64,000 nt of DNA from an uncultured delta proteobacterium (GTDB lineage Bacteria > Desulfobacterota > Binatia > UBA9968), in the NCBI GenBank assembly GCA_963816145.1, contig CAWFJP010000031.1, positions 192,001-256,000 of the forward strand, read 5' to 3'. The notes under the pieces were generated by a model. It saw nothing but the letters and a program-made list of their open reading frames with translations, ran no database searches and was not told the DNA's origin. Below are positions 6,847 to 33,600 of this stretch, piece by piece (position 1 is the stretch's first letter; each line of letters opens with the position of its first letter). A program made the translations under genes and the position numbers.

Positions 6847-6897
6847 GCGCGCAGCTTGGGCCAGGCGATTTGCGGATGGACGCGGCCGCCTAGCCGC
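6847..6897 (-). pseudogene. 3' stub of metE-like gene
   Basis: Reads LGGRVHPQIAWPKLRA; near copy of 32441-32492 (LGGRVHPQIAWAKLRA). Confidence 0.8.
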
Positions 6898-6973
6898 TGT
6901 CGCAACGTTAATCACGAGGGTTAACTCGGTGACATTGCTCCATGTGCTGGAGCTCAGCGCGGCCACAGACTTT

Positions 6974-7128
6974 CACTTCTCGGCAACTGCGCGGGTCTGC
7001 GAAACTCGCTAGTTGTCTAGACCGTCTTGGCAAACGCTTTATTCTTTTCCTTCTCGTAGGCGAGCAGCTACTTGAAGCTCGGACATTCCTCGATCCCGCG
7101 AAATGCGCCGCGACGTTGAAAAACGTGA
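6974..7128 (-). pseudogene. 3' stub of glutathione S-transferase plus downstream flank
   Basis: Degenerate copy of about 28291-28448, including the stop codon and the ACTTCTCGGCAACTGCG flank. Confidence 0.8.
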
Positions 7129-7284
7129 AACCTCAGCTAGCCAACCGCGTACCTGAGAACGTTGCCGGCAATTCGCTGAGTTCTCCCCGACAAAGCCGCC
7201 GGTTTGACACAGGGCTGAGTTCGCGGCTACAAAGTTTGCTGTCCTGTCGCTGGGTGGACGCCGTAAAAGGTTAGGACTTCGCCT

Positions 7285-7524
7285 GTGCCGAAGTCGAAAC
7301 GAAGTTATTTCGGTGCGGATCTGCACATGAGTGTGAACGAACGCATAAGCACCTACGACTCGGCGTTCAGAATCGCTGAATTCATGCTCAACCTGCTGCC
7401 GATGCAGGATCCGCCGACCCGGAATCGCCTGGAGGAATATGTGCGCAAGCATTTGTCCGAGGGCGCAGGCGGGTTTCGCTGCTCTTGCGATCAGGATTTT
7501 CTCACGATCCGCCCGCGCGCATGA
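7285..7524 (+). pseudogene. Orphan C-terminal gene fragment, probably of an unrelated methyltransferase-like protein
   Basis: Protein-like AFRIAEFMLNLLPMQDPPTRNRLEEYVRKH...CSCDQDFLTIRPR with coding-type codon usage but no convincing start; family assignment from memory only. Confidence 0.4.
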
Positions 7525-8831: not shown

Positions 8832-8966
8832 AGCGGAACCCTCGAAGCGATTGCAGTGGCGGGATCAGGTCATGCGATGGCACATTCCGGTCGTTTGCCC
8901 CACGATTGTTAGAAAAGCTTCAAAATCTTGGTTTAGGCCCTTCAATCTTAACAATCGTTCAGGTTC

Positions 8967-9069
8967 TCGGTTCCACAACATCTTGCCGGCGATGGCCGCG
9001 CCCTCGCGCAGCACCCATAACTTCGCCCAAGCAATCTGCGGCTGTACGCGCCCGCCGAGGCCGCAGTCG
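8967..9069 (-). pseudogene. 3' stub of metE-like gene
   Basis: Reads DCGLGGRVQPQIAWAKLWVLREGAAIAGKMLWN; homologous to 32395-32497. Confidence 0.85.
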
Positions 9070-9658
9070 TCAGGTTAACACAAGCCGTCTCGGTGCCGGG
9101 CTTGCGTCATGACAGGTCTCCAGGGAGTGAAGGTCGTGTTGTGAGAGCACGGCTTCCGACCGCGATGGCGAGCGCGACGACGATCAGAATCGCCGCGAGT
9201 GCGAACGTAGTCCGCAGAAAGTAAAAGATTCCCGCCCCTTTTTTGCGACCTCTCCGGTTTAGCCGGACCGGATCGCGAGTTACACCGAGACGAACGGTTC
9301 TCGTGTGGTGGGGTGATTCGGTTTTTCCGTGTCATGATTGTAGTTCTCGCATTCAGTCGGTCTTCACATTTCGAATAACCGCTAGATGCGCAATTGCAGT
9401 GCCAGCCGTTAGACTGAACGCAATCGCTACGTGTGAAGCCGTTGACGCACCCGTCGACATTCTAGTGAGGCATTTTGGCGTGCGCTTTGACCGCTTCGCT
9501 ACAACCCACCGTCCGGTTTCATGGCAATCCGGGGTCGTTGTTGCGGGCTTTTGCGGCAGAGTCTGAGTTGGCGTGAATTTTGTAACGGCTATGCTTGTTC
9601 GCAAACGATCGGGAGGTTGTATCGAAAGGAGCGCCGATTACCGGGCGGAAGTGCCAAG

Positions 9659-12318: not shown

Positions 12319-12339
12319 TGACATGGGATCACTTTTACA

Positions 12340-12396
12340 TCCAGACTTTCCAGCTTTTAGTTTTGTTCATCCCGCACGGGCGCTTTTGCATTCAAC
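12340..12396 (-). repeat. Copy of the metE-like gene stop and downstream flank
   Basis: GTTCATCCCGCACGGGCGCTTTTGCATTCAAC matches 26031-26062 and 32368-32399. Confidence 0.75.
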
Positions 12397-12406
12397 GCCA
12401 ACGCCA

Positions 12407-12543
12407 CTACGGTTCCAATCGGAATCGCCTCCCGGGAGGATACCCGCTTCGAACTTCAATAGTTTTGGGCGCGGGACAGAGACATCGCTGCCGACCTTCT
12501 GGATGTTGATCAGCTCGGTGGGCGTGTCCCAGTCGCTCTTCGA
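12407..12543 (-). pseudogene. 3' stub of the secreted methyltransferase family
   Basis: SKSDWDTPTELINIQKVGSDVSVPRPKLLKFEAG..., frameshifted just before ...TTGGAACCGTAG. Confidence 0.85.
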
Positions 12544-12650
12544 ATGGCCTAGTATCAGGCTTTGCTTCTTTGACAACACTGTCGTGTATCCAACCTTATC
12601 CCGGTGAGGCGGATGTCCATAAGTTGCCAGCCCCCTTGAGTGCATATGCT

Positions 12651-13475
12651 TCAGTCGCAGTTCTTAAGCTTGGATTCCTGACAGCGGCGTGCCATCTCCT
12701 GCGCGGTTTCAATCTGCTCGGCGGTCATTTTTGACGCGATTCCATCTCGATTCTTTGCCGCCGTATCTCCAGAATCGCCGCCCAATGCTGCGGCAGCGAG
12801 GTTAAACCACATATACGCGCGCACAAAGTCCAGCCGCACGCCTGTGCCATGGGTATACATCACACCCAGATTAACCTGGGCAAATTCGTTTCCCTGCGCA
12901 GCGGCGAGGCGATACCACTTCACGGCTTCCGGAAAATCCTGCGGCACGCCCTGGCCTTTTTCATACGCCACACCCAGACTGTACTCTGCCGGTGCGTATC
13001 CCTGAGCCGCCGCGAGGCGATACCACTTTACAGCCTCGTGAAAATCCTGCGGCACGCCTTGCCCCTCAGCATATATCGAACCCAGCCTCGTCTGCGCCCA
13101 TTCGTCTTCCCGCCCCGCTGCGATGCGATACCACTTCACGGCTTCCTGAAAATCCTGCGGCACGCCTTGCCCTTTCTCATACGCCAGACCGAGGCTGTAC
13201 TGCGCCGGGACATTTCCCTGCGCTGCCGCGAGGCGAAACCACTTTACAGCCTCCTGAAAATCCTGCGGCACGCCTTTCCCCTCTGCATAGATCAAACCGA
13301 GCCGCCGCTGCGCCCATTGGTGTCCCTGCTCGGCAAGCTGGCGAAAGAGTTTCATCGCCTGAACATAGTCGCCGCGCTCGTACGCAACGCTTGCGTCATC
13401 AAAAGGGTTTGCTGCGGCAAAACTACAGCTGCCGAGCAGATAAAGAATGGCGAGCAAATACAGGTTGGTTTTCAT
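12651..13475 (-). CDS. Secreted Sel1-repeat (SLR) protein
   Basis: Signal peptide; repeats AQxxLGxxYxxGxGVPQDFxEAVKWYRLAAAQG with 108-bp DNA periodicity; C-terminal AYMWFNLAAA...MTAEQIETAQ. Confidence 0.92.
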   Translation of the reverse strand: MKTNLYLLAILYLLGSCSFAAANPFDDASVAYERGDYVQAMKLFRQLAEQGHQWAQRRLGLIYAEGKGVPQDFQEAVKWFRLAAAQGNVPAQYSLGLAYEKGQGVPQDFQEAVKWYRIAAGREDEWAQTRLGSIYAEGQGVPQDFHEAVKWYRLAAAQGYAPAEYSLGVAYEKGQGVPQDFPEAVKWYRLAAAQGNEFAQVNLGVMYTHGTGVRLDFVRAYMWFNLAAAALGGDSGDTAAKNRDGIASKMTAEQIETAQEMARRCQESKLKNCD

Positions 13476-13555
13476 GGCGATCCCCATGCCGTTACCGACT
13501 GTGGCTTGCCTGACCGCGACTGTCACACGAATACGCTGTTGACGTCATGAATCCT

Positions 13556-13773
13556 GGGTCATCGCGTAATCGAGTGGGCACTGACTTAATGGCAAATTAC
13601 TCTCCCATGGCCGGTTCCTCCCTTTCGCAAAGGGAGGTTAGGAGGGATTTTTCATGGCTTGAAAGATCGTCTTCTGCACAAAATCCCCCCAACCCCCCTT
13701 TTCTAAAGGGGGGTGAAACCTACAAGAACAGCATTTCTCAACAAATTTTACCCACTCGATTACGCGAAGAGCC
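13556..13773. mobile_element. MITE (218 bp) with 23-bp TIRs and 8-bp target duplication
   Basis: GGGTCATCGCGTAATCGAGTGGG ... CCCACTCGATTACGCGAAGAGCC (21/23 match); flanks TGAATCCT / TGAATCTT; internal palindromes. Confidence 0.85.
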
Positions 13774-13832
13774 TGAATCTTAATATTGCTAATTTTTCGG
13801 CTTGCTCTTTATCCGTCCCGGCACGGCGTTGC

Positions 13833-13871
13833 GCATGCGCTTGAAATGCGCCGCGACGTTGGCGAAGCCTG
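13833..13871 (-). repeat. 39-bp exact copy of the GST 3' region
   Basis: GCATGCGCTTGAAATGCGCCGCGACGTTGGCGAAGCCTG is identical to 28409-28447. Confidence 0.9.
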
Positions 13872-13932
13872 CGATTCAACCCCCAAATGCGTGGCGCGGC
13901 CCTGATCCAACTGCGAGCCATGTTGCATTACC

Positions 13933-14844
13933 CTACGGGTCCAATTGGAAGCGCCGCGCGGGAGGATATCCCGCCTCGAACTCCCATAGTTTCAGGTGCG
14001 GGACCGAAACGTTGCTGCAAACCTTCCGAATATTTATCAGCTCGGTGGGCCTTTTCCAGTCGCTCTTCGACTCACAGGTAACTTGCGCGCAGGCGGTCCG
14101 CTTCAGCCAGGAGCAAACTTTCTCGGGGCGGCCGGCGGCATCCTCCAGCTCGGTCAGATACAAGATGCCGAGTTTGTCCTTGCCATCCTCTAAATGCACG
14201 CCTGGCACCAGCGTGTAGAAGGCGCCGCCGATCTCCAGCAACCTCAGCACTCTCTCGACAAACCCGGACAAGTCCTCGGTATAGGAGAAGCCGCCGAACA
14301 CGTCGGTAATGATCTGGAATTTTCCAAGCTCCTCGGGCGAATACTGGCGCAGACGTTTGCCGGAGAGATATCGTACACGGTCATCGCCGAAGCTCGCGGC
14401 CTGGTCTCGCCACCTGTCGGTCCGGCGGTCCTCGATGGACATCGCGACCGCGCGCGCCTTCTCCACGGACCGGCCGCATTTTTGAGCCGGCGCCGCGTCG
14501 ACTGCGGACGCATGGTAGTCCAGTAGGGCCTCGCCGGCGCCCGCTCCGATATCCAGCCATCGGTCGGAGCTGCCAAGCCTGCCGAGCGCGTCGCAGAAGC
14601 CGGAGGGAAGAAGCTCCGCGTAGTCCGAGAGCCCTCGGTTGGTGACGTAGCCGCTAGGCACTTCGGCGCCCCGGCTGCGGTAGATCTTTTCCTGCTTGGT
14701 GAATTCCTCGTCGAGCCGCGGTTGAGCGGGTTCTTGCGGCCAGCCAACTTCCAGCCCAAGCGCCGGCACGACGATGGCGATCACAACGGCCAGGCGCGCT
14801 GCCGCAGCCTTCCATCCTTTCCCCGACGATGTGACTGAACCCAT
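13933..14844 (-). CDS. Secreted class I SAM-dependent methyltransferase-fold protein (paralog B)
   Basis: Hydrophobic N-terminus ending GWP-QEP; WLDIGAGAG; IITDVFGGF; six conserved Cys. Confidence 0.88.
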   Translation of the reverse strand: MGSVTSSGKGWKAAAARLAVVIAIVVPALGLEVGWPQEPAQPRLDEEFTKQEKIYRSRGAEVPSGYVTNRGLSDYAELLPSGFCDALGRLGSSDRWLDIGAGAGEALLDYHASAVDAAPAQKCGRSVEKARAVAMSIEDRRTDRWRDQAASFGDDRVRYLSGKRLRQYSPEELGKFQIITDVFGGFSYTEDLSGFVERVLRLLEIGGAFYTLVPGVHLEDGKDKLGILYLTELEDAAGRPEKVCSWLKRTACAQVTCESKSDWKRPTELINIRKVCSNVSVPHLKLWEFEAGYPPARRFQLDP

Positions 14845-14849
14845 GACGA

Positions 14850-14876
14850 TTACTTACTCCTCGCGTTGAAAAACGT
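14850..14876 (-). pseudogene. 3' stub of the alpha/beta-hydrolase
   Basis: TFFNARSK* vs TFFNARRK* at 27140-27166, with the same 5-bp spacing to the MTase ATG. Confidence 0.75.
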
Positions 14877-15004
14877 CGATAACGAAACGTTGTTGACGAA
14901 GTGGACTAGCGCTGTTCAGCGGCCATTTCCCGGTCGCAGGTCAACGGTGGCGGAATTTGTCCCGTTGGTCAACAATGCAACCTTCCACGCGCACAATCTC
15001 CGAT

Positions 15005-15068
15005 CTTTGCGGCCTTTGCGTCTTTGCGGGAGATACTCCGAAATTCGCTTGCGCGTCTGTCGCGCCGG
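15005..15068. repeat. CTTTGCG-periodic intergenic repeat; inverted copy at 30573-30636
   Basis: CTTTGCGGCCTTTGCGTCTTTGCGGGAGATACTCCGAAATTCGCTTGCG is nearly the reverse complement of 30588-30636. Confidence 0.75.
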
Positions 15069-15160
15069 TTTGTTGCGTCGCCGCGGTGAAACAGAAATTT
15101 GCGATTACCCCGCGATAGGGTGTTCACGTTCCACGTTTACGACTCGCGTTTTCTCACCGC

Positions 15161-16839
15161 TTACTTTGGCGCAGCCGCTTTGCGCCGGCCGATGGCGGCC
15201 TCGGCTCGCGGGCTGATCGCGCGCTCCACCGCGACGTTCAGCAGCGCCGGCTTGTTGGCGGCGAGCGCGCGCTCCAACGACGGCTTTAGATCGTCGGGAC
15301 GCTCGACAAACTCGCCGTAACCGCCAAGGCCTTGCACCACCTGATCGTAACGGCTTTGACGCAGATCGGTGGCGACGGCGCGACCGTAGAGACCGAGCTG
15401 GATTTGCCGGTCGATGCCCCACGCCGAATCGTTGCCGATGATCGCGACGATATTCAGTCCATGGCGCACGGCGGTGTCGAATTCCATGCCGTTAAAGCCA
15501 AAAGCGCCGTCGCCGGTGAGCATGAAGACGCGCGAATTCGGATAAGCGACCTTGGCCGCCAGCGCGGTGGGCAACGAGGATCCCAACATGCCGAGGCTGG
15601 AAACGTTGAACCAGCGCTTCGGTTTGACCGCCGGGAGATAAGACCTGCCGAAATGACAAAAATCGCCGCCATCGAACACCAGACAGTCGTCGGGGCGGAG
15701 TATGGATTTTAGCGTCTTGTGGACGAAGAGCGCGTGCATCGGCGTGTTGGGCTGCGCGAGCTTTTCCGCCCACTCGGCCTGGGCCGCCGCGCGGCGCGCA
15801 GTTCCTCCAGCCACGGGAGATCCTTCCACTGGTAGTTGGCCGCCTCCTGGGTCATCTGCTCCAGGATGCTCGTGACATCGCCTGCCATGCCGACATCGAC
15901 GCCGCGATTGCGGCCGATCTCCAGCGGCGAAGGATCGATCTGAATAATCTTCGCGTTCGCCGCGACATGCGGCGGGCGGCAATAACCGATGATGAAGTCT
16001 TGCTTGCGGCCGAGCAGCACGACCACGTCGGCGTCGCGGACTTTGGCCGCCGCGCGATTCAGGCCGCGCTCGAAGTAGCCGAAGACGTAGGGGTGATCGT
16101 CAGGAACCAGACCGCGCGACTGCTCTTCGGTCACGATCGGCAGGCGCGTCGTTTCGATGAAGCGTTGCATCGCTTCGCCCGAGAGCGTGTAGCCGGCGGC
16201 GCTGCCGGCGATCAGCAGCGGCCGCTGCGCTTGGCGCAAGAGCGCGACCGCCTGCCGCACTTGTTTGGGATCGCCGAGCACGGCGGCATTGGGCCGGTAG
16301 GCATCAGGAGCTATCAACGTCACGTCGTTTTCCTCGACGCTTTGCTCTTGCACGTCGATGGGAATCGTCAAATGCACCGGCCCGCGCCGCCCGCTGAACG
16401 CCAGGCGCATGGCGCGGGCGATGTATTCAGGAATCCTGCGCGCATCCGGAACCATGAACGAACCCTTGCACATGGGTTCGGCCATGCCAACTTGATTGAT
16501 TTCTTGTTGGGCGCCGCGGCCTAAATCATGGGTGTCTGCGCAACCGGCGATGGAAATCACCGGGCCCTCGGTGTGCATCGCATTGGTGAGGCCGGGAATT
16601 GCGTTGGCGAATCCCGGCGTGGTGTACATGCAGACGCCGGGCTGCTCGGTGATGCGGCTCCAGGCATCCGCCATGTGGACGGCGGCTTGCTCATGACGGG
16701 TGTCGAGGACGCGAAAGTCCTGATCCGCCATCACGTCCAATACCGGCAGTATGTGATCGCCCGCCAGAGCGAAGATATTTCTGACGCCTTCGAGCTTGAG
16801 CGCTTTGCAGATCAGATGACTTCCCGTGAGTCGGGCCAT
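15161..16839 (-). pseudogene. Thiamine pyrophosphate-dependent enzyme (acetolactate synthase large subunit-like) with one frameshift near 15790; may be intact in vivo
   Basis: N-part has TRHEQAAVHMADAW and GPVHLTIP; C-part has TPP motif GDGAFGF...GND; frames join in a GC run. Confidence 0.85.
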
Positions 16840-16881
16840 GTTCGCCTCCTATTGGTCAAAATCCAGCGCTGACGCCTCGAT

Positions 16882-17013
16882 GGGTAATGGTTCAGTTTGA
16901 GTCGGGCGCAAATCTTCATGAGACAGATTTCTCGCTGTGCTCGAAATGACAGCAGAATAGTCGCATTGTCATCTCGAACGAAGTGAGAGATCTCGGTCTA
17001 ACTAAACCACTAC
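16882..17013. mobile_element. MITE, inverted copy of 5165-5299
   Basis: GGTAATGGTTCAGT ... ACTAAACCACTAC termini; perfect flanking direct repeat GCCTCGAT (16874-16881 / 17014-17021). Confidence 0.85.
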
Positions 17014-17123
17014 GCCTCGATCCCATCACGCGCAAAAGGCTTTGTGAGACGTCCCGCGTGATTTCGTTTAATACAGCGCCGCAGTGCCAGTCAATGGATG
17101 ATTGTAGCAGCGCGGCCGAAATC

Positions 17124-18536: not shown

Positions 18537-18778
18537 CGTGTTCGCTTTATCTGATCATGCTTTATATGGCGGACTCGCTGTCGTCCCCTGAACTGCGCCC
18601 TCCGAAATGCACGCGCCTGATATTGTTCGAGCGCATTGAGGTTATTATCTCGTAATTACCGCTTCGGGCAATAAGCACATCGGTCAGGAGCTTTAACGAC
18701 CGGGGGGCGCGAATCTTTCGTTCTTGACTGAAGAGAGCCAAGACAGTATGGCAGAGGAAACGTTTTGAAGGGGGTGCC

Positions 18779-19998: not shown

Positions 19999-20003
19999 CT
20001 CGC

Positions 20004-23332: not shown

Positions 23333-24431
23333 TCTCGTCAAAGACGGCGCGCGGCAGATGACGATCTGCAACGCCTGCCGCTACTGCGAAGGGTACTGCG
23401 CGGTGTTTCCGGCGATGGAGCAGCGCCGGGTTTTCACCAAAGCCGATCTCACCTATCTCGCCAATCTTTGCTTCGATTGCCGCGACTGTTATTACGCCTG
23501 CCAGTACGCGCCGCCCCATGAGTTCGGCGTCAATATTCCCAAGTTGATGTCCGAATTGCGCGCCGATACCTATCGCGAGTTCACCTGGCCGGTGATTTTG
23601 TCGGGTCTGTTCAAGCGCAACCTGCTGGCGGTAAGCGGGATCACCGCCGCGTCGATTATGATCATTTTCGGTCTCGTGCTCGGGTTTCAAGGCTCGGAGG
23701 TTTTGCTCGGTACCCACCTCGGCGAAGGAGCTTTTTACCGCGTGGTGCCGTTTGTCGCCATGACCGTGCCGCCGTCGCTCATCGCGCTCTACGGTTTTAT
23801 AGTTTTCATCATCGGCGCGGCGCGCTTTTGGCGCGAGACTCAGGGACCGATTTCCGCGTTGGTCGATTTGCCCGCGCTGTGGCGCGCGACCAAAGACGCT
23901 TTCGGTCTCGCCTATATGAAAGGCGGCGGCGCCGGCTGCAACTATCCCGGCGAGAGTTTTTCGCGCTTAAGAATGTGGCTGCACCATTTGGTTTTTTATG
24001 GTTTTCTTCTCGACCTGGCCGCCACGACCGTCGCAGCTTTCTACGACCACTTTCTCGGTTGGCAGGCGCCTTATCCCTATTTCAGCGCGCCGGTGGTGCT
24101 CGGCACCGCCGGCGGCGTGGGTTTGATCATCGGCACCGCGGGTCTGCTTTGCTTGAAATGGAAAAGCGATCGCGCGCCCGCGGACGCAAGCATGTTCAAC
24201 ATGGACGCGGCGTTTCTCTTGCTGTTATTTCTAACCGCCGTTACCGGTCTTATATTGCTCGCGTTCCGCGAAACCGCGGCGATGGGAACGCTGCTGGTCA
24301 TCCATTTGGGCGCGGTCGCGGGACTGTTCATTACGTTGCCTTATGGAAAGTTTGCCCACGTGGTCTATCGTTACGCCGCATTGGTGCGCTACGCGATCGA
24401 GCAGAGGCGAGTCGAAACACACTCTTCATAA
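23319..24431 (+). CDS. tcuB: Tricarballylate utilization 4Fe-4S membrane protein
   Basis: CNACRYCEGYCAVF and CFDCRDCYYACQYAPPHEF; PYGKFAH; GTG start with AGGAGG RBS. Confidence 0.93.
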   Translation: MPDFDLVKDGARQMTICNACRYCEGYCAVFPAMEQRRVFTKADLTYLANLCFDCRDCYYACQYAPPHEFGVNIPKLMSELRADTYREFTWPVILSGLFKRNLLAVSGITAASIMIIFGLVLGFQGSEVLLGTHLGEGAFYRVVPFVAMTVPPSLIALYGFIVFIIGAARFWRETQGPISALVDLPALWRATKDAFGLAYMKGGGAGCNYPGESFSRLRMWLHHLVFYGFLLDLAATTVAAFYDHFLGWQAPYPYFSAPVVLGTAGGVGLIIGTAGLLCLKWKSDRAPADASMFNMDAAFLLLLFLTAVTGLILLAFRETAAMGTLLVIHLGAVAGLFITLPYGKFAHVVYRYAALVRYAIEQRRVETHSS

Positions 24432-24477
24432 AGTCCCCTTGTGAGTGATACGCAGTATGTGGGGATAAGGGGGCTTT
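24430..24477. terminator. Possible bidirectional hairpin terminator
   Basis: AAAGTCCCCTT ... AAGGGGGCTTT between convergent genes. Confidence 0.5.
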
Positions 24478-24491
24478 GTTGACTAAGTGGA

Positions 24492-25862
24492 CTAGTTCGT
24501 GTCCCAGCGCAACGCGGCGCGCACCGCCGCAGCGTCATGAGCCTCGTCGACACGACGCGAGCGGCTTTCGTAAGCTTGCCAAGTCGCTGCGTCCCAAATG
24601 CGCGTGCTCAGGCGAGCCTTGAGCAGCTGACGCACGCGAGGTAAATCGCCTAGCTGCAAGGCAGCCATGACCATGATCTGGTCGTAGAGGTCTTGTTGGA
24701 CGTGGCTCGCACCGAGTTCCCCGTGGCGCTGGCGCACGGCCAGCATCCGCTCAAGCGCTTCGCGGGGCTTGTCCTGGTAAAAAGCCGCCGCGGCCTGGGC
24801 GAGCTCGTGCGCCAGCGCCGCCTGTGTGGAGCTCGTCCCGGCAGAGCGCAGGTATTCGATCGCTGACTGCACCGCCGATAGCCGCCCGCTGCGCATCAGT
24901 GCCATGACGTGATGCATGGAGGTAAACCATACCGTGCTTTGCGTAGCGTTGAGCAAAGAGGCTTGCGCCAGGCGCTCCCAACGCGCCAGCCCGACGTCAA
25001 CACCCTGGAATTCCAGGCGCGCCAGCAACGAGGCGCCATTTTGAACGTCAATGTAAAAGGTCGACGACTTCGGATAAACCTCGCGGTCAAACAGATCGAG
25101 AACCTCGTCGAAACGGCCCTGCAAAAACTTAAACAAGCTCAAATGCCACCACAGGTGGCCGCGAAACAGGTTATAGTCGTTGAGAAACCGCGCCGCATCG
25201 CTGAGCAGTTCGATGCCCTCCCGGACACGGCTTTGCATCTCGAACACATGGACCAGGCCATGCAAGGCCCAGAGATCCTGCGGCTGCAAAGCCAGCGCCT
25301 CGCGGGCGCAACGCTCGGCCACTTCGTACTGGCCAACCTCTTCCATCGCGAAGGCATGAGCCGAAAGAAAGTGCCCATAACCGGGCGTCCGGGGGCCCCA
25401 ATGGCCGGCGACTCCCGCGCTCACTTCGGCTTGATGTCGTTTGTCACCGGTCCAGAAAAGCGTGCCTGTGTGTTGACGCAAAGCCAGCAAATCCAATGGC
25501 CACTCGACCAGGATTTGCTCCCAGGCCGCCGCACGGGCGGAAAGATCCTGCGCAATCCAGGCACGCAAGGCTTCTTGGTGCAAACGCTCCCGGGGATTGG
25601 CGGGCAAAGCCTCCGCCTGCCGCAGGTGTGCCCGTGCCCTGGGCTGGGCGTCGAGCGTATATTCGGTCATGAGAGAGTAGCCCTTGAGTACATGAGCAAG
25701 GACAAACTCCGGAAACTCCTGCAACAGTGCGTCCAGGCGATCCCCTGTCCCCAGACGGTAGTAGTAGATGTCGTCAATCAGGGCGTCGAAACGCTCAACA
25801 GCTGCGGAGCTGGCCGCAGTGAGCGAAAGGCCACGAATATCCATGATGTCAACGTGGGTCAT
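24492..25862 (-). CDS. Tetratricopeptide repeat protein (TTC38-like)
   Basis: WPLDLLAL, AFAMEEVG, DLWALHGLVHVFEM, HLWWH, GASHVQQD. Confidence 0.8.
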   Translation of the reverse strand: MTHVDIMDIRGLSLTAASSAAVERFDALIDDIYYYRLGTGDRLDALLQEFPEFVLAHVLKGYSLMTEYTLDAQPRARAHLRQAEALPANPRERLHQEALRAWIAQDLSARAAAWEQILVEWPLDLLALRQHTGTLFWTGDKRHQAEVSAGVAGHWGPRTPGYGHFLSAHAFAMEEVGQYEVAERCAREALALQPQDLWALHGLVHVFEMQSRVREGIELLSDAARFLNDYNLFRGHLWWHLSLFKFLQGRFDEVLDLFDREVYPKSSTFYIDVQNGASLLARLEFQGVDVGLARWERLAQASLLNATQSTVWFTSMHHVMALMRSGRLSAVQSAIEYLRSAGTSSTQAALAHELAQAAAAFYQDKPREALERMLAVRQRHGELGASHVQQDLYDQIMVMAALQLGDLPRVRQLLKARLSTRIWDAATWQAYESRSRRVDEAHDAAAVRAALRWDTN

Positions 25863-26003
25863 AAATTCTGTAGAGGAAATTCAAACCGACTTTTTATCCT
25901 GACCGAGCAGTATAGCCGGACCCGGCAGTTGTCAATCGCGTTTCTGTTTGATGAAATTCGCGACTTTGCTTCGGTCGGATAATGGAATAGCGGGCAGCTA
26001 TTC

Positions 26004-26146
26004 CTTCTAAACTTTCTTCCTTCCTGTTTGGTTCATCCCGCACAGGCACTCTTGAATTCAACTCCACAACTTCGTGCTCGCTATCGCCGCGCCTGCGCGC
26101 AGGACGCGCAACTTGGCCCAGGCGATTTGCGCAGGACGCGGCGCCC
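26004..26146 (-). pseudogene. 3' stub of metE-like gene plus downstream flank (direct repeat of 32341-32485)
   Basis: Reads QIAWAKLRVLRAGAAIASTKLWS*; flank GTTCATCCCGCACAGGCACTCTTGAATTCAAC conserved. Confidence 0.88.
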
Positions 26147-26222
26147 GTTGAGGTGTGCTTGATTTTTTTATGAGTGACCATGATCTTCGCGGTTCCCGGA
26201 CTGCGAAGCATATTCCATCGGC

Positions 26223-27134
26223 CTACGGCTCCAACTGGAATCGCCTTCCGGGGGGATTCCCCGCCTCGTACTTCAGTAATTTCATGCGCGGGACGGAGAC
26301 GTCGCTGCAAACCTTGCGGATGTTGATCAACTCGGTGGGCGCGTTCCAGTCGGTCTTCGACTCGCAGGCGACTTTTGCGCAGGTGGTCTGCTTCAGCCAG
26401 GAGCACACTTTTACGTCACGGCCGGCTGCATCCACCAGCTCGGTCTGATACGAGTTGTCGGGTTTGTCCTTGCCATCCTCTAAATGCACGCCTTGCACCA
26501 GCGTGTAGAAGACGCCGCCGGTCTCCAGCAAGCTCAGCACCTTCTCCAGGAACTGGGACAAGTCTTCGGTATAGGAGAAGCCGCCGTACACGTCGGTAAT
26601 GATCTGGAATTTTCCAAGGTCCTCGCGCGAATAGTGCCGCAGGCCTTTGCCGAAAAGATAGCTAATACGGTCATCGCCGAGACTCGCGGCTTGCTGTTGC
26701 CACTTGTCCGTCCGGCGGTCCTCTATGGACATCGCGACCGAGCGCGCCCTGCCGGCCAACTGGGCGCACTTTCCAGCCGGGACCGCGTCGTCTACGGGTG
26801 CATAGTAGTCGAGTATCGCCTGCCCTTCGCCCGTTCCGACATCAAGCCATCGGTCCGAGCTGCCCAGGCTGCCGAGCGCGTCACAGAACCCGGAGGGAAG
26901 AAGTTGCGCATAGTCCGAGAGCCCTCGGTTGGTGACGTAGCCGCTGGGAACTTCGGCGCCCCGGCTGCGGTAGATTTTTTCCTGCTTGGCGAATTCCTCG
27001 TCGATCCGCGGTTGAGCGGGTTCCTGTGACCAGCCAGTTCCCAGCCCAAGCGCCTCTAGGACGATGACGATCAGAACGGCCAGGGGCGCTGCCGCAGTGT
27101 TCCATCCTTGCACCGACGATCTGACTGAAGCCAT
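26223..27134 (-). CDS. Secreted class I SAM-dependent methyltransferase-fold protein (paralog C)
   Basis: GWS-QEP after hydrophobic stretch; WLDVGTGEG; IITDVYGGF; six conserved Cys. Confidence 0.88.
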   Translation of the reverse strand: MASVRSSVQGWNTAAAPLAVLIVIVLEALGLGTGWSQEPAQPRIDEEFAKQEKIYRSRGAEVPSGYVTNRGLSDYAQLLPSGFCDALGSLGSSDRWLDVGTGEGQAILDYYAPVDDAVPAGKCAQLAGRARSVAMSIEDRRTDKWQQQAASLGDDRISYLFGKGLRHYSREDLGKFQIITDVYGGFSYTEDLSQFLEKVLSLLETGGVFYTLVQGVHLEDGKDKPDNSYQTELVDAAGRDVKVCSWLKQTTCAKVACESKTDWNAPTELINIRKVCSDVSVPRMKLLKYEAGNPPGRRFQLEP

Positions 27135-27139
27135 GACAA

Positions 27140-28113
27140 TTATTTTCTCCTCGCGTTGAAAAAAGTGCCGTTCTTAATGGCCTGGTCAAAGCTGTTCCAG
27201 CCATAGTCTATGCCGCCGGTGGCCGCAAGGCTGAAGGCGGAGGCGGTCAGCGCGCTGACGAAAGCGATCTGCGCTTCTTCGGTGTCATCGGGTTCGTCTT
27301 CGAATGCGCGCAGCGTGTGCTCGTTCGGATACTGCGCATCTTGGTGGACCGTGTCCCGTATCGAGATCTCGCCGACCGCGCGCGGAATGAAGCGGTAAAA
27401 TTGCCCGCGGTTGCGGGTGGGCCAGATGTCCTCGTCCGCACCGATCACCATCACTGGAGCGGTGATCCGCTGCAGCAACTGCCGCAATTCCCGGCCGATC
27501 CCGGCAGGATCGAGGAGCACGCCACCGAACGCGGGGGCTTTTTCCCCCAACGCGGTGGCGACGGCGGTCGCGCCGAATGAGTGGCCCACCAGAATGATCT
27601 TGTCCGCGTCGATGCGCTCGTCGACGAGCTGCGGCGTCCGATGAATCGCGTCGACCAGCCTGGCAAGGGTTCTGCCGTTGGCGATCCACGGGCCACGTTT
27701 GGGCAAGTCGAGGGCCAGGCTATGCATGCCCCAGGAGGCCAAGTGCTTCGCTTGGAAGGCATGATCCTCCTTCGAATTGTCGAGACCGTGCAACACGATC
27801 ACCAGGGGAGCCTTGCGGGCCGCCGCGCACAGGTACAAGTCCGCTGTCCGCCGTGAGACCGGAAGCCAGGGAGATTTCCAGGTCTTTGCGCTCGCTGACG
27901 GCAAAGGGCCCGCGCAACCTGAATTGTGCGACGTCGGGTTTGCGGGATAGTAGATATCGTTGGAGCTCGGCGGGGTTATCGGTCTTTATCGTCGTGACTT
28001 CAAGGCCCGGAAACCGGCGAGCACAGCCGACCGAATGCGCCATGAGCGCGATCAGCAGCAAGGGCTGAAATGCGAAAACCTGATCGGCCGATCACGGCTG
28101 CGGTTCCTGGCAT
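27140..28113 (-). pseudogene. Lipoprotein alpha/beta hydrolase, frameshifted
   Basis: Lipobox-like SVGC; VIVLHG, GHSFG nucleophile elbow; a 7-bp tandem duplication at 27839-27852 breaks the frame; probable extra base near 28062. Confidence 0.8.
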
Positions 28114-28334
28114 ATTACTCCCGAGAACGATTCAAGGCAGAGTCTTGAATCTTGACTTTGCTATTTTCGGTTTTGCTCTTAATAACACTTCGAAAATTTT
28201 GCTGTCCGTCTTGAAATGGAAATGGGCGGCGCGATTTCTCCCCTCTCGCTGATGCCCCTTCTCGTCCTCGAAAGGCACACCGAGCTACTTCTACTTCTCG
28301 GCAACTGCGTGTGTCTGCGCAACTCGAGTGGTTC

Positions 28335-28979
28335 CTAGGCCGTCTTGGCAAACCCTTCATTCACTTCTTTCTCGTAGGCGACGAGCTTCTTGACGCTCGG
28401 GCGCTCCTGCATGCGCTTGAAATGCGCCGCGACGTTGGCGAAGCCTGAGATGTCCACTTTCAATTGGGTGGCGCGCCGGCAACACCAAAAGAAATGCGCG
28501 TCCGGGGCGGTGAAATGGTCGAAGAAGTATTCGCGCCCGGCGAGCAAATCATCACCGATTTTGAAGTTCTCGAAGAGCGCTTCGGTGGCGAACTTGATCA
28601 CGCTATCGGACGCGCCGTTGGCGTCGCAGACTTTGGGCGGGTTGTTGATCCGGCTCAGATAGGGGTGGATGCCGCTGGCACACCAGCCATGCAGCGAGAT
28701 CGCCTGCAACTGCTCCCACGGATCGGCGGGCAGGAGCTTCGCTGCGGGGAAGGTTCGATGGACCCATTGATGGATGGCGACGTTCTCGGTCAGGATCTTG
28801 CCGTCGACCACCAGCGCGGGCACCTTGTGTTTCGGGTTGATCTTCAGGTACTCGGGCGAGAAATTCTGCCGCTTGCGGAAATCGAGCGGCCGGACCTCGA
28901 AATCGGCGCCGGCCTCGGCCAGCGTGACATAGGGAGCGAGCGCGCAGGTGTTGGGGGCGTAGTAAAGAACGATTTCCAT
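28335..28979 (-). CDS. Glutathione S-transferase family protein
   Basis: LYYAPNTCA, YLKINPKHKVPAL, LTENVAI, FTAPD; GAGGAG RBS. Confidence 0.93.
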   Translation of the reverse strand: MEIVLYYAPNTCALAPYVTLAEAGADFEVRPLDFRKRQNFSPEYLKINPKHKVPALVVDGKILTENVAIHQWVHRTFPAAKLLPADPWEQLQAISLHGWCASGIHPYLSRINNPPKVCDANGASDSVIKFATEALFENFKIGDDLLAGREYFFDHFTAPDAHFFWCCRRATQLKVDISGFANVAAHFKRMQERPSVKKLVAYEKEVNEGFAKTA

Positions 28980-29173
28980 TGATGTCTCCTCATTAGTCTG
29001 ATTCCCGATAATTCCCGCCTCTTGAGTCGGGCACAAATTTGCTGGGCTTTCCGAAGCGTTCGGACATCCCCTTTTGGTCGTGCGCGGGGTTCAAACTCGA
29101 CTCACGAAGTTCGCTTGACCGACCGATTGCGAACTTGGTTCTCCGGGCACCGTCTGGATGGCCATCGACTTCT

Positions 29174-30535
29174 TCACTTCACGAGCAGGGGTATTAATTC
29201 GGCGGCTTTTTCGCAAGTCTCCAATCGGTCCACTGCTTCGATCACTTTGTCGACGCGCTCTTCGGTCAGCACCGCGCGGGCCAGTTTGCGAAACTTAGCT
29301 CGCAGCACATCCCGGCCCACCATGTTGTGCGGCGAGCCGGGCGGGTAGGGCTCAAACGCCTTGTGAATTTTGCCGTTGGTCAGCTTCACTTCCATCGTCG
29401 TGTTGTAATTCTGATCTTTTTTCGCATTCGGGTCTGCGTAACTCTTCACCTTTCTGGCCAGCGCGAGCACCTTCGGGTCGGTCCAGAGTTTCGGGTCCAT
29501 GTAGAAACTCAGATCGTTGTCATTTTTCAGCAAACGAATTGCCAAGGAAAATGGCAGGCTGAATTGCGCGCTTGCCGTGTCATGGGGCTCATAAATCGCC
29601 CCGCCGTGTGTCACCGAGGTTTCGGATATGCCGACGCGGATCTCATCGATGTCGTCCGCGCCAAAGCGATGCTCCTCGATCAGTTTGGCGAGCGTGTAAA
29701 TGACTCCCTGCACTGTAGCGACGCAGGGATAGAGCTTGAACCAGATACGCATGATCTTGAAGTCGCTGCCGAGAGCGCGAGTGATTTCTTCAGGCTCCGA
29801 CTGATCGGCGAAGACTTTTAGAAAGCCGCGCTTGCCTTCGATAATCGTCGGCGGGCCGGTGAGGCCGAGCTGCGCCAGCAGCGCGGATTGAATACCGCCG
29901 CGGGCGGCGACGCCGGCGATCACGCGCTTCACCTCGCCTCCGGTTTGATCGTATTCCATGGTGCCGCTGGAATGCATGCCGGCGATGCCGAAGGCATGGA
30001 GAATTTGCCCTTCAGTCAAGCCGAGCAGTCTTGCCGCTGTCGCCATCGCGCCGAAGGGCGCGCCGATGCCGTGGCTGTGGAAGCCGCGCTTGCCGGCTGA
30101 AGGCCGCACCGCCAGCAGTATACGATACATGATGTCCCATCCGACGACGACGGCGGCAAGGAAATCTTTGCCGGTGCATGGGTATTTTTCACAGAGCGCA
30201 AGCGCTACGGGAACCGTGGCGGCACCCGGGTGGCCGCCGGCTGCGAAGCCGACGTCGTCGAGCTCGCAGCCTTGACCGAACGTGGCGTTCACGAATGCCG
30301 CGTCCAGGGTCGGAACTTTGGCGCCGTAGTTGACCACGGTGCTTTCGCCGCGGCCGCCCATTTCGACAACGTATCGATAGGCAATCTTGTTCCACTCCAG
30401 AGTCGAGCCGATCAGCTCGACGCCGATCTGATCGAGGATGCAGTCTTTGGCCTTTTCAATCGCCTCGCGCGGAATATCTTCAAAACGCAGCCGCGCGGTG
30501 TGGAGCGCCAGTTGTTCAGTGATACCGGTTGTCAT
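29174..30535 (-). CDS. MmgE/PrpD family protein
   Basis: ILDQIGV, ELDD...GHPG, GFH, KLYPC, AQFSLPF, PGSP. Confidence 0.9.
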   Translation of the reverse strand: MTTGITEQLALHTARLRFEDIPREAIEKAKDCILDQIGVELIGSTLEWNKIAYRYVVEMGGRGESTVVNYGAKVPTLDAAFVNATFGQGCELDDVGFAAGGHPGAATVPVALALCEKYPCTGKDFLAAVVVGWDIMYRILLAVRPSAGKRGFHSHGIGAPFGAMATAARLLGLTEGQILHAFGIAGMHSSGTMEYDQTGGEVKRVIAGVAARGGIQSALLAQLGLTGPPTIIEGKRGFLKVFADQSEPEEITRALGSDFKIMRIWFKLYPCVATVQGVIYTLAKLIEEHRFGADDIDEIRVGISETSVTHGGAIYEPHDTASAQFSLPFSLAIRLLKNDNDLSFYMDPKLWTDPKVLALARKVKSYADPNAKKDQNYNTTMEVKLTNGKIHKAFEPYPPGSPHNMVGRDVLRAKFRKLARAVLTEERVDKVIEAVDRLETCEKAAELIPLLVK

Positions 30536-30770
30536 GTTTAATTTCCTTTCGAGTTGACTTACCACGAAGTTCCCAGCGCGGCAGAGCCGCAAGCGAAATT
30601 CGGAATATCTCTCGCAAAGACGCAAAGGCCGCAAAGTTTGGAAAATAGTTTTGAAAAACGTTCCTCAGTATAATTTATATTTTTTCTCCGAACTTGGCGT
30701 GCTTTGCGCCTTTGCGGGAGGCAATTCCCATGAACGAGTCCTTGCACCGCGTCTCGACGATTGGGCCGCT

Positions 30771-32249
30771 CTATGCGCGGTTCGCCTTGGCAAAGTCGGC
30801 CGCATGGGTTCCCGCCAAGCGGCCGAAGACCGCGCCCTTCATCAGACCCGATCCGCCGGGATAATTATTGAAAAACGATCCGCCGGTGATTTCTCCCGCG
30901 GCAAAGAGTCCGCTGATCAAATTGCCGCTGGTGTCTTTGACCTCACATTTCTCCGTAATGCCGACGCCGCCGAAGGTAAAGGTGATGCCGCAGGTTACGG
31001 GAAAGGCGTAAAACGGCGGCATGTCCAGGCGCTGCGCCCAGTTCGACTTCGCCGGGCTGATCCCGCGAGTGCATTTGCCGTCGTGCTTCGATGGATCGAA
31101 CGGCGCGTCGTTCACGCCGGCATTGAATTCATTCACTGTCGTAACCACGTTCGCCCAGTCTAAGCCAGGCAATTTTTTTGCCAAGGCCTCGATGCTGTCG
31201 GCGCTGACATGAAAACCGCGGTTATACTCCGAGCGCAGCAGCGGACGCGTCTTGTTGTCGAAAATTTGATACGCGGTCCGCCAAGGCAAACGCAGCACCT
31301 CGCGGCCGCATTTCGCGTAGGTGTAGGTAAAGAAGTCCTCGCCTTCATCGACGAATCGCTTGCCGTCGATATCGACCATGATCCCGTAAGGATAGGAGTA
31401 GCGATGTTCGTAGGCGCACTCGACATCGGGAGCTGCCGAGTCTACTAGGACGGCATGGCAGCCGCTCCAATGGCCGACCGGCTGCGCGCCGAAAGCCAAG
31501 GCAAAATTCAAAACCTCGCCGGAGTTGTAGCGCGAGCCGCGAACTTTGACCAAGTCCCAGCCCGGTCCGAGATAGCGGGCGCGCATTTCCGGATTGGCTT
31601 CGAAGCCGCCGGCGGCCAGAATGACCGCGCGGCCGTGGAAGTCGGCTGTTCCTTCGCTGGTTTGCACGCGTACACCGGCGAGTTTGCCTTTGTCATCGAC
31701 GATCAACCCTTGAGCTCTAGCTTCGTAAAGAATTTCGACGCCTTTGTTCTCCGCAGTCGGAAAAAGCATCTCGATCAGTCCGAGGCCGCCGTCGTTGACG
31801 GAGATAACCCGCCCGGGCGGGAATTTGATTCTCCCTCCCGTTTTAACCGCGTGGGTGCTCGTCGCAAGAATCCACTTGACGTTCATCTCGGTGAGCCATC
31901 GCGCCGTTGGATAGGATTGGTCGACGAGGATGTTGGTGAGTTTCTTATCAGCGGCATACTCGGTCACCTGCATGACATCTTCGAAGAATTCCGCGTTGGT
32001 ATAAGTACCGACATCCATTTTTGCCGCTTCCTCGTCCGTCACGTCGGGGAGCATTGGACGCATGTCGTCCAGACTGTTGTACGTGAAGCGAAAGCCGCCG
32101 CCGGAAAATCGCGTGTTGCCCCCGCGTGCCGGTTTGGGACATTTGTCCAAAAGCAGCACGCGCGTTTCCCGTTGTCGTGCCGCCAGAGCCGCCGTCAATC
32201 CAGCATTGCCCGCGCCGACCACGATCACGTCGTAAATCTCTCCTGCCAT
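30771..32249 (-). CDS. FAD-dependent oxidoreductase, TcuA/flavocytochrome c-like
   Basis: GAGNAG, RGGNTRFSGG, GGFEAN, CGITFTFGG, NYPGGSGLMKGAVFGR. Confidence 0.88.
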   Translation of the reverse strand: MAGEIYDVIVVGAGNAGLTAALAARQRETRVLLLDKCPKPARGGNTRFSGGGFRFTYNSLDDMRPMLPDVTDEEAAKMDVGTYTNAEFFEDVMQVTEYAADKKLTNILVDQSYPTARWLTEMNVKWILATSTHAVKTGGRIKFPPGRVISVNDGGLGLIEMLFPTAENKGVEILYEARAQGLIVDDKGKLAGVRVQTSEGTADFHGRAVILAAGGFEANPEMRARYLGPGWDLVKVRGSRYNSGEVLNFALAFGAQPVGHWSGCHAVLVDSAAPDVECAYEHRYSYPYGIMVDIDGKRFVDEGEDFFTYTYAKCGREVLRLPWRTAYQIFDNKTRPLLRSEYNRGFHVSADSIEALAKKLPGLDWANVVTTVNEFNAGVNDAPFDPSKHDGKCTRGISPAKSNWAQRLDMPPFYAFPVTCGITFTFGGVGITEKCEVKDTSGNLISGLFAAGEITGGSFFNNYPGGSGLMKGAVFGRLAGTHAADFAKANRA

Positions 32250-32394
32250 ACTTATTCAATCTCCTCGCTGACTCAAGCCGTTACCGGGGTGAAACTAAAG
32301 GGTCTTTACATTGGGGGAAACGCCCGGCGGCCGACTTTTGCTTCTAGAGGTTCTTGCTTTTTGTTCCGTTCACCCCGCGCAGGCACTTTTGAAT

Positions 32395-33600
32395 TCAACT
32401 CCATAGCTTCTTGCTCGCAATCGCCGCGCCTTCGCGCAGCGCGCGCAGCTTGGCCCAAGCGATCTGGGGATGGACGCGGCCGCCCAGGCCGCAGTCGGTG
32501 CCGGCGATAACGTTTTCTTGGCCGACGAGATCAGCGAACGCGATGATGCGGTCGGCGACCAGTTCCGGGTGCTCGACGAGATCGGTGGAGTGGCTGACGA
32601 CGCCGGGGATGAGAATTTTTCCGGCGGGCAGCTTCATATCGCGCCAGACTTTGTATTCATGTTCGTGGCGGACGTTGCCGGCTTCGACCAGGTACGCCTG
32701 GGCGTTGACCCTGAGCATGATATCGACGATGTCGCGCAGCGGGAAATCGGTGGTGTGCGGACCATGCCAGCTGCCCCAACAAATGTGAAAGCGCACGCGC
32801 TCCGTTGGGATTCCTTGGAGCGCGTGATTCAAGATCTCGACGCGCTGTGATGCGTAACGCCTGTACTCCGCGACGTTCGGCTGGGGATCGAGCATGTCCC
32901 AGGCGCCGGGCAAGCCGGGGTCGTCGAGCTGCAAGATAAATCCCGCGTCGATGATCGCGCGATATTCTTCGCGCAGCGCCGCGGCGATCGCCTCTAAGAA
33001 CTTCTCCGTTGTCGGGTAGTAGCAGTTCTGATCGCGGCAGAACATCTCCAGGCTGCCGGGGGCGATGGCGCTGACGAATGCTTCGTCGATGCCTGCCGCA
33101 TTGGCGGCTAACTTCAAGTTCACAAGCTGATCGTGCAAAAAAGTTTGCCCAGTGTAGGCGATGGGCCCAGTGCACGTCGGTCGCATGGCGGCGGTGCTCG
33201 GTGCCCCGAGGCCGGTGTCGGCGTAGAATTCAGCGAACTCGCGCTGCTCCCAGCGCACGCCGACGATGCGCATCGCTGCTCCAGGCGCAGCGGTGTCGGG
33301 GGCGATGGTCTGCGCCGAAGTTGCCGTGAAGCCGGAGAGGCGGTCGAAAATGTAGTTGCCCCAAGCGCCGCGGTCGGTGGCCGCACGCATGGGCTTGCCG
33401 AACTCGCCGTCGTTGGGAATATCGATGCCGGCGCTTTTCTGCGCGACCACGACCTCGCCGATAGCGGAGCGCAGCCGCGTTTGCAGTGCGGCTTCGTCCT
33501 CAGGCGCGCTGGATTTCTTCGCCCACATGACGCGCAGGTCGGCCGGCCGCGGCAGACTGCCGACGTGGGTGGTGAGAATTCGTTCCGTGCTTCGTTTCAT
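32395..33600 (-). CDS. Cobalamin-independent methionine synthase II family protein
   Basis: ILTTHVGSLPRP, NDGEFGK, HICWGSWHGPH, EAGNVRHEHE, TDCGLGGRVHPQIAWAKL. Confidence 0.93.
   Translation of the reverse strand: MKRSTERILTTHVGSLPRPADLRVMWAKKSSAPEDEAALQTRLRSAIGEVVVAQKSAGIDIPNDGEFGKPMRAATDRGAWGNYIFDRLSGFTATSAQTIAPDTAAPGAAMRIVGVRWEQREFAEFYADTGLGAPSTAAMRPTCTGPIAYTGQTFLHDQLVNLKLAANAAGIDEAFVSAIAPGSLEMFCRDQNCYYPTTEKFLEAIAAALREEYRAIIDAGFILQLDDPGLPGAWDMLDPQPNVAEYRRYASQRVEILNHALQGIPTERVRFHICWGSWHGPHTTDFPLRDIVDIMLRVNAQAYLVEAGNVRHEHEYKVWRDMKLPAGKILIPGVVSHSTDLVEHPELVADRIIAFADLVGQENVIAGTDCGLGGRVHPQIAWAKLRALREGAAIASKKLWS

Follow-up and report, generated by a model that had tools for sequence, protein, structure and literature searches.

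Orphan 3' ends in line behind a metE-like gene: a probable record of repeated tail displacement in an uncultured delta proteobacterium

How does the end of one ordinary enzyme gene come to be repeated, time and again in the same orientation, between blocks of unrelated genes? The question is raised by a stretch of 64,000 nucleotides (the window) from an uncultured delta proteobacterium of the Binatia lineage UBA9968, comprising positions 192001-256000 of contig C31 of the genome here called G000 (GenBank assembly GCA_963816145.1, contig CAWFJP010000031.1; 7.82 Mb in 31 contigs, ~56% G+C, rated 99.5% complete). The window contains an intact metE-like gene encoding a protein of 401 aa (32395-33600, minus strand), which is the parent of all the stubs described below. 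An earlier note, made from the sequence alone, had listed four copies of the 3' end or flank of this gene, all on the minus strand and downstream of it; searches with tblastn and nhmmer recover the four at or near the places it gave, as members of a longer trail of at least 12 co-oriented partial copies of the 3' end and/or the flank, spread over ~73 kb (C31 152-225 kb), with five in the window and a continuation of 38 kb to its left. Arrays of orphan tails usually mark polymorphic toxin loci or islands borne by integrases; here they accompany a gene for an ordinary enzyme and a dozen others unrelated to it. The trail is probably the record of repeated displacement of the 3' end, anchored by homology and independent of a recombinase, followed by local duplication.

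The name metE-like serves as a superfamily label only, since the 401-aa protein misses the cut-offs of all five NCBIfam methionine-synthase models by far (best score 71.7 versus 406); a Pfam scan assigns it a partial PF01717 (Meth_synt_2) domain (50.2 bits, cut-off 21). Orthologs with 77-92% aa identity are present in nine congeners, and G000 itself has six full-length genes of the metE-like subfamily, in addition to more distant ones. A full-length paralog with 44% aa identity to the parent lies within the window (2696-3883, plus strand; tblastn and NCBIfam). Tallies at the level of the genus cover 31 genomes, denoted by G numbers where they have to be told apart; these include the unpublished G005, on which no specific claim depends.

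Truncated copies and their breakpoints

The window was searched with the 401-aa protein (tblastn) and with a 371-nt query from the 3' region of the gene (nhmmer), in which the stop codon ends at position 226 and to which the breakpoint positions given below refer. The protein search yields matches at 9068-8970 (aa 369-401, 82%, E 1e-11), 26129-26061 (aa 379-401, 87%), 6893-6846 (aa 372-387, 94%) and 2443-2351 (aa 369-399, 68%), and the nucleotide search at 25976-26144, 12326-12429, 8904-9070, 6846-6904 and 2338-2454, with E values between 4e-25 and 3e-4; the copy at 2338-2454 had escaped the earlier note. A limit of sensitivity does not account for the truncations, which are real: the alignments of full-length paralogs (44-47% aa identity) begin at query position 1-3, those of the stubs on C31 only at 101-139.

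The intact gene is followed by a flank of what we call type A (32327-32394, minus strand; repeat families D5 and D6, and alignments), which recurs at 25976-26057 and 12326-12400 as well as outside the window. Stub s218 (25976-26144, minus strand; nhmmer E 3.7e-25) consists of the last ~87 coding nt, from query position 139, the stop codon and a type-A flank, and lies 77 nt downstream of a gene for a 303-aa protein; its changes are distributed 3/3/2 over the codon positions and its decay looks neutral. Stub s204 (12326-12429, minus strand; nhmmer query 196-292, E 6e-7) retains the last ~30 coding nt with the type-A flank and is fused to a 3' fragment of a 303-aa gene (12430-12555), which corresponds to aa 255-296 in a tblastn search with the 303-aa protein. 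Three further stubs on the minus strand were detected by both tblastn and nhmmer: s201 (8904-9070) covers aa 369-401 and has a flank of a second type, B, while its upstream junction shares ~19 nt with an arm found at s172 and s194; s198.9 (6846-6904) has type-A coding sequence (query 122-181), is cut on its 3' side, where it meets the 3' end of a 303-aa paralog on the plus strand; and s194 (2338-2454), of type B, carries a non-metE arm of ~110 nt, stands head-to-head with the full-length paralog and has an orthologous copy in G003 (contig C30, at 100.6k). A copy of the type-B flank without a coding stub is found at 5442-5495 on the minus strand (self-blastn, 89% to C31 161330-161383; motif scan).

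On contig C31 as a whole, nhmmer finds nine minus-strand copies (at 218.1, 204.4, 201.0, 198.9, 194.4, 171.9, 163.1, 161.5 and 154.3 kb) and a lone plus-strand one, at 190.9 kb, which sits within an inverted duplication of 2.8 kb; a motif scan adds three degenerate minus-strand copies at 152.2, 158.5 and 197.5 kb. Twelve of the 13 partial copies on the contig thus share the strand of the intact gene and lie downstream, and no 5' stub of the gene was found in the whole G000 genome. After the stop codon, the type-A flank is present in the intact gene, s218, s204 and s190, and the type-B flank in s201, s163, s161 and s154, with two further copies as flank only. Across the genus, all 25 matches on the seven contigs that bear at least two are co-oriented; the trail copies of the congeners are not independent, since they are partly shared by descent.

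The concern, voiced in the earlier note, that such repeats might come from misassembly is removed by contigs from independent soil metagenome runs, which bridge both the junctions of s218 (X1 record 5, 25409-26493, and X5 record 29) and the intact 3' end (an X2 contig, record 16, 30772-32508). A joint between about 26146 and about 32485, such as an excision circle or an empty site would give, is absent from the best-supported joints listed for window positions 14001-34000 in four metagenome runs, which consist of short assembled contigs.

The starts of the three coding stubs had been placed within ~12 bp of each other; stub starts do cluster, 87-142 nt ahead of the stop codon, but those of the three lie at query positions 139, 123 and 122, which is a spread of 17 nt. 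Genus-wide, stubs start at positions 32, 85, 88, 96, 101, 110, 118, 121-123 and 133-139, that is, 87-195 nt ahead of the stop codon, and with starts ranging over query 32-139 no one fixed crossover core accounts for all insertions at metE-like genes. This bears directly on the idea of site-specific accretion, in which a recombinase encoded elsewhere, like an integron integrase, would use an att site within the metE-like 3' end to take up circular cassettes, leaving stubs of the attR type. The co-oriented repeats of ~150 nt, fairly sharply bounded at either end and alternating with unrelated cargo, would suit such a mechanism, as would the clustering of stub starts in ~55 nt, the order of blocks, which differs between G000 and G003 while their orientation is kept, and the tyrosine integrase that adjoins a second metE copy in G014. 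However, none of the 11 matches to the tyrosine recombinase family PF00589 in G000 lies on C31, and there are none on G003:C30, G017:C17 or G018:C8; the Resolvase-family serine recombinases (PF00239) have no match in the G000 genome; and rve, DDE_Tnp_1 and IS110 are all absent from C31 140-262 kb. In addition, the breakpoints are not identical, relics of this kind are found at 11 unrelated genes whose junctions share no motif on either side (see below), and the flanks show no excess of structure when folded. These observations make accretion by a recombinase acting from elsewhere highly unlikely; a site-specific system particular to metE is unlikely as well, because the process is independent of the gene and free of motifs. 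Neither the site-specific recombination nor the role for the conserved DCGLGGR codons that the earlier note had proposed is therefore upheld.

The second metE copy of G014 (82% identity; locus L030, G014:C2, 4187-8535) lies directly downstream of the tyrosine integrase and of a gene with HD-CE and HATPase_c_3 domains, an arrangement that looks like a small defence-type island. The integrase was considered as a source of stubs and rejected: it is on the 5' side of the copy, beside the HD-CE/HATPase gene, and there are no stubs at that place. Six flanks were likewise considered as candidates for attC-like or terminator structures and rejected, folding with z-scores of -0.98 to +1.71 and no excess over shuffled sequence. 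Elsewhere in G000, an isolated internal fragment of the metE-like gene (C17:44813-44948; aa 331-375, ~70% identity) ends approximately where the stubs begin.

Blocks between the stubs and the ancestry of the tails

The stubs are separated by blocks of one to 11 genes on either strand. Block 1 (26223-32249, minus strand) encodes TcuA, an MmgE/PrpD protein, a glutathione S-transferase (GST), an alpha/beta hydrolase and a 303-aa secreted protein; block 2 (12651-25862, both strands) encodes a Sel1-repeat protein, a 303-aa paralog, a thiamine pyrophosphate (TPP) enzyme, PrpD and a TctA-TctB fusion, and further a TcuA-like protein, TcuB and two unknown proteins of 456 and 366 aa. An NMT1 solute-binding protein (SBP), a Rieske protein and a DAO protein complete the window cargo recognized by Pfam or NCBIfam. 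The descriptions first given to this cargo are borne out by these models, which identify TcuA, PrpD, GST, hydrolase, TcuB, TctA-TctB, TPP, Sel1, SBP, Rieske and DAO proteins; only the 'methyltransferase' has no Pfam or NCBIfam match. No recombinase was found by Pfam among the block proteins scanned, all of which are of metabolic or transport type, apart from one DDE transposase at another locus.

Relatives differ from G000 by whole blocks, as had been anticipated. In G017, 220 nt separate the intact metE-like gene from the SBP gene behind it, the one which in G000 comes after s172, ~52 kb away from the gene body; in G003, the metE-like gene is followed directly by the genes for GST, hydrolase and 303-aa protein, without those for TcuA and PrpD. 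The gene behind the intact metE-like gene differs in every species examined.

An independent case is provided by a paralog on contig C2 (289159->287939; 45% identity to the metE-like parent), which has a single stub of 141 nt 14.5 kb downstream. The ten genes scanned in the block between them include a sigma-54 activator, SBPs, a tripartite tricarboxylate transporter (TTT) and an ABC permease, and no recombinase by Pfam. The L-PSP gene that lies behind the stub in G000 comes right behind the intact ortholog in G004, G040 and G039, and the block itself was not found in these three genomes. Between stub and live tail, 24 of 138 nt are changed (7/2/15 by codon position) yet no more than 3 of 45 residues, which marks them as two functional alleles; the live tail therefore arrived with the block. 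No crossover point was found within the C2 gene, where sliding identity against four relatives is flat, and the search for a source of the block returned relatives with only 72-76% homologs at other loci, no metE-like gene being listed on those contigs.

The tails behind the metE-like gene tell of a second allele as well. Set against a consensus of five intact orthologs, that of type B has 1, 2 and 10 changes at the first, second and third codon positions, respectively, and the B states occur in none of the nine intact orthologs examined; type B thus comes from another functional allele and not from decay. Together with the empty arrangements in G017 and, at C2, in G004, G040 and G039, this supports the view that the stubs are displaced former 3' ends. 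Repeated addition of DNA within the gene, as proposed at the outset, agrees with the blocks that lie between the gene body and its former tail; the single point of addition does not survive, as the starts extend over query 32-139 and some of them are shared by descent.

The live gene itself looks like a mosaic: over nt 1-1000, G000 sides with G003 at 61 versus 37 informative sites, and over the last 206 nt (1001-1206) with G017/G014/G006 at 12 versus 3 for G003 (Fisher p=0.004, with a cut point picked after viewing sliding windows). The mosaic 3' end and the allele-type differences at metE and C2 fit a homologous anchor.

Not all copies arose separately. The 172k and 194k stubs have in common a non-metE arm of ~83 nt upstream of the breakpoint, and the 152.2k copy shares ~110 nt of arm with 194k; another junction, at which a 303-aa gene meets with its 3' end the last ~30 nt of metE, is present at 204.4k, at 190.9k (on the plus strand), and in G003, G017 and G018. 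Several of the 'shared' breakpoints thus reflect common descent, of an arm-and-stub unit in one case (152.2k, 172k, 194k) and of the junction between 303-aa gene and stub in the other, and roughly six to eight distinct junction types are distinguishable at the metE-like locus.

Could, then, the entire trail have an origin within the genome, in tandem or segmental duplications that end in the gene, each giving an intact copy and a stub, with the cargo replaced later? A tandem duplication of this kind yields a co-oriented downstream 3' stub by construction, the two units just described have clearly been duplicated, local paralogy is abundant (five 303-aa paralogs and the 2.8-kb inverted duplication, which is 88% identical), and many other stubs in the genome look like the neutral decay of a near-identical copy. 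Against this stands the homology between stubs and parents, which in 8 of 13 cases breaks off at the stop codon and in none extends into the cargo, as well as the cargo between stubs, which is 24-33% alike in protein sequence where the stubs are 75-85% alike in DNA; moreover, the C2 block was not found in G004, G039 and G040, its flanks being adjacent there, and the divergence of A from B, and of the two C2 tails, is of the coding type. Tandem duplication alone is contradicted by the end of homology at the stop codon, the empty C2 sites and the coding-type divergence, and we hold an intragenomic origin of the trail to be clearly unlikely.

The 303-aa proteins form a family with a signal-peptide-like N-terminus, encoded at window positions 26223-27134, 13933-14844 and 5931-6833, at C31 189966-190868 and 191164-192036, and at C16 56342-57163. 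The family has no Pfam or NCBIfam match and contains a motif that we take to be motif I of SAM-dependent methyltransferases. Five paralogs lie within 30 kb, and four abut metE tail fragments. The inverted duplication pairs C31 188152-190875 with window positions 26222-29003 and comprises the genes for GST, hydrolase and 303-aa protein.

Tail relics at other genes of the genome

The search for other genes with stubs, which the earlier note had recommended, succeeded. For this survey, 6766 crudely called open reading frames (ORFs) of G000 were translated and all proteins searched against the intergenic DNA; short fragments without another piece of the parent within 1.5 kb were retained as orphans. 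The 254 orphans comprise 35 C-terminal, 59 N-terminal and 160 internal fragments, the latter two classes belonging mostly to a few ORFs that overlap dispersed repeats. Among the C-terminal orphans, 19 of 35 are on the contig of their parent, and the 15 that lie within 60 kb of it comprise 14 that are co-oriented and downstream, one that is co-oriented and upstream, and none that is anti-oriented. Near fragments of the other classes are co-oriented and downstream in 2 of 10 (internal) and 1 of 3 (N-terminal) cases. Taking all near, co-oriented, downstream fragments together, 16 of 17 derive from the C-terminal ~15% of the parent.

The 14 downstream stubs belong to 12 genes of unrelated families, encoding an alpha/beta hydrolase, two SBPs, a caspase-like peptidase, an amidohydrolase, an adenylate cyclase, a shikimate-dehydrogenase-like protein, a PrpD-like protein, a Glx-tRNA synthetase, an unknown protein, the C2 paralog and the metE-like protein itself. 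Eleven unrelated stub-bearing genes other than the metE-like one were found in the genome, at C12 118-126, C14 567-573, C17 87-119, C18 88-94, C27 48-59, C30 94-99 and C31 108-113 kb; their stubs lie 2-10 kb from the parent, all co-oriented and all but one downstream. The duplicated piece begins 77-241 nt before the stop codon and ends, in the 8 of 13 cases mentioned above, no more than 8 nt from it. The 12 junctions of the other genes are sharp and have no motif in common on either side, and twenty further block proteins at these loci are ordinary metabolic or transport proteins, except for the DDE transposase. At C12, three nested stubs stand in the order that serial displacement predicts.

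The age of such relics can be gauged at the amidohydrolase gene, whose stub is common to six species, starts at query positions 85, 111, 114, 114, 140 and 183, and shows a star-like neutral decay 2-3 times faster than that of the parents; because it is common to six species and its left ends are staggered, the relics are old and persistent, and erode from the junction. Selection on this stub, or its gene conversion, was considered and is ruled out by the star-like identity matrix, which fits neutral decay.

Erosion might also be taken as the origin of the stubs, in a process of birth and death by which full-length metE-like copies would be eroded by deletion and their tails kept as terminators or as regulatory DNA of the neighbouring gene. 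The six full-length subfamily genes and their more distant kin could have furnished such copies, stubs do erode, as seen from the staggered amidohydrolase starts and from the 63-kb stub of G003, which begins at query 32 where the related stub of G000 begins at 101, and in the type-B flank a T-run comes after a hairpin, as in a terminator. Random erosion should, however, leave 5' and internal pieces, and the near fragments are tails in all but one of 17 cases; the stubs decay neutrally and faster than their parents, the hairpins are no more stable than those of shuffled sequence, and several stubs are followed by convergent genes, none of which they could serve. The survival of almost nothing but tails contradicts an erosion of full-length paralogs, and we regard this account as very doubtful.

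A possible route of insertion and its known counterparts

In the displacement reading favoured here, new DNA would enter the chromosome through recombination for which the coding part of a conserved gene provides the anchor. The incoming DNA would bring its own last ~100-200 nt of the gene along with different downstream genes, so that the gene, receiving its tail from the donor, stays intact; the resident tail and the DNA behind it would be shunted downstream, to decay there neutrally. At the metE-like gene, displacement would have been repeated several times, and some of the stubs would then have been multiplied or reshuffled as passengers of local duplications. No dedicated recombinase would be involved; the route may have been homology-facilitated illegitimate recombination (HFIR) or a Campbell-type integration of a circular fragment by homologous recombination, which would fit equally well, and the relics suggest, rather than fix, this molecular route as well as the number and order of the events. 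The joints lie 80-250 nt from the end of homology, a range whose lower bound is set by detection limits and whose upper bound may come from the instability of long direct repeats. Ku was not found in G000; ComEC was, in common with 10 of 14 control genomes.

Several points weigh against displacement. No donor sequence is at hand to show an illegitimate joint or microhomology, and HFIR, which the present case resembles in its homologous anchor and lack of a dedicated recombinase, in its textbook form deletes recipient DNA beyond the anchor, where here the end of the anchor is duplicated. Most B stubs differ from their own consensus about evenly by codon position (the exceptions being s201 with 2/1/9 and s194 with 5/7/12 changes) and three share the arm, so that much of the copy number stems from the duplication of dead stubs and not from separate displacements. 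Decay shows no gradient with distance from the gene, and the type-A stub at 198.9k sits among type-B stubs. In most of the other 12 cases, aa identity between stub and parent is lower than nt identity, which fits an origin in situ too, and the 'block' at the tRNA synthetase gene is conserved in relatives, which renders the direction of that event ambiguous. The upstream side of the metE-like gene varies among species as well, so that the whole region is in flux. Finally, the stub counts of the genome-wide survey are those of G000 alone.

The architecture has its nearest counterparts in toxin loci. The displacement model for Rhs tips given by Jackson et al. (2009; PMC2935791) combines a circular intermediate with one homologous crossover; for effector-immunity modules of type VI secretion systems (T6SS), displacement via HFIR is proposed by Kirchberger et al. 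(2017; PMC5361080). In HFIR (de Vries & Wackernagel 2002; Prudhomme et al. 2002; Meier & Wackernagel 2003, as cited there and in PMC2884548), one homologous anchor admits unrelated adjacent DNA without a dedicated recombinase. In the arrays of Rhs, contact-dependent inhibition (CDI) and T6SS loci, as in the trail described here, co-oriented orphans that lack their 5' part but keep some conserved sequence stand in a row behind an intact gene, an incoming piece is proposed to push the incumbent tail downstream, and no integrase is known. In contrast, the tips of those loci are different toxin domains with their immunity genes, variety being the point, whereas the stubs here are dead and all correspond to one C-terminus, that of an enzyme of metabolic type, the cargo is of transport and catabolic type (TcuA/B, PrpD, TTT, SBPs), and relics accompany many unrelated genes. 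Among the literature matches listed for 'C-terminal displacement', the bacterial work concerns Rhs or T6SS toxins only, and tail displacement at metabolic genes is not described. The relics described here show the architecture of toxin-tip displacement, but without toxins or variable tips, and spread across a genome.

A second set of counterparts consists of integrative elements that supply replacement 3' ends, such as e14 or phage 21 in icd, integrative and conjugative elements in fda, and tRNA islands, including tandem accretion with cis-mobilizable elements. In these as in the present case, a direct repeat of the last ~100-200 nt of the target bounds the insert, the gene is restored intact, homology stops at the end of the gene, and tandem arrays are possible; unlike them, the blocks examined here have no integrase in or beside them and no common core, and are ordinary operons on either strand. 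Integron arrays are similar in their ordered, co-oriented repeats between unrelated cargo and in the addition of units at one end, but here intI and attI are absent and the contig has no integrase; the repeats consist of gene tails that do not fold like attC, and the units comprise several genes on both strands.

A bolder extension of the displacement reading, tentative and in our view rather unlikely, is that tail displacement constitutes a regular, recombinase-free route of gene gain in the genus, with conserved genes acting as reusable docks, behind which entire transport or catabolic operons would be inserted along with a replacement tail, and with old tails providing patches of homology that allow blocks to loop out, exchange and re-dock; general recombination would then sustain an integron-like economy of cassettes, in which the metE-like locus would be the busiest site. 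If displacement itself is correct, dead tails would form a datable record of where, and in which order, operons joined large soil-bacterial genomes, and would reveal a homology-anchored insertion route that is missed by island finders keyed to integrases and tRNA sites; they would also lend themselves to a simple scan, for 3' stubs that lie in the orientation of the parent and a few kb behind it.

Some further features of the window stand apart from these considerations. The Sel1-repeat gene (12825-13364) has a periodicity of 108 nt at the DNA level, with four units that are 64-79% alike. TctA and TctB are fused in a single ORF of 643 aa (20004-21935), and a similar fusion of 707 aa occurs in the C2 block. 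A dispersed repeat of two modules, picked up via a spurious 131-aa ORF (C14:494310-494705), is found at 5126-5960 and 16825-17138 and at ~100 sites genome-wide, and also in congeners. The depth of metagenome contigs rises 5-10 fold at 16669-17335, with loose ends at 17013.

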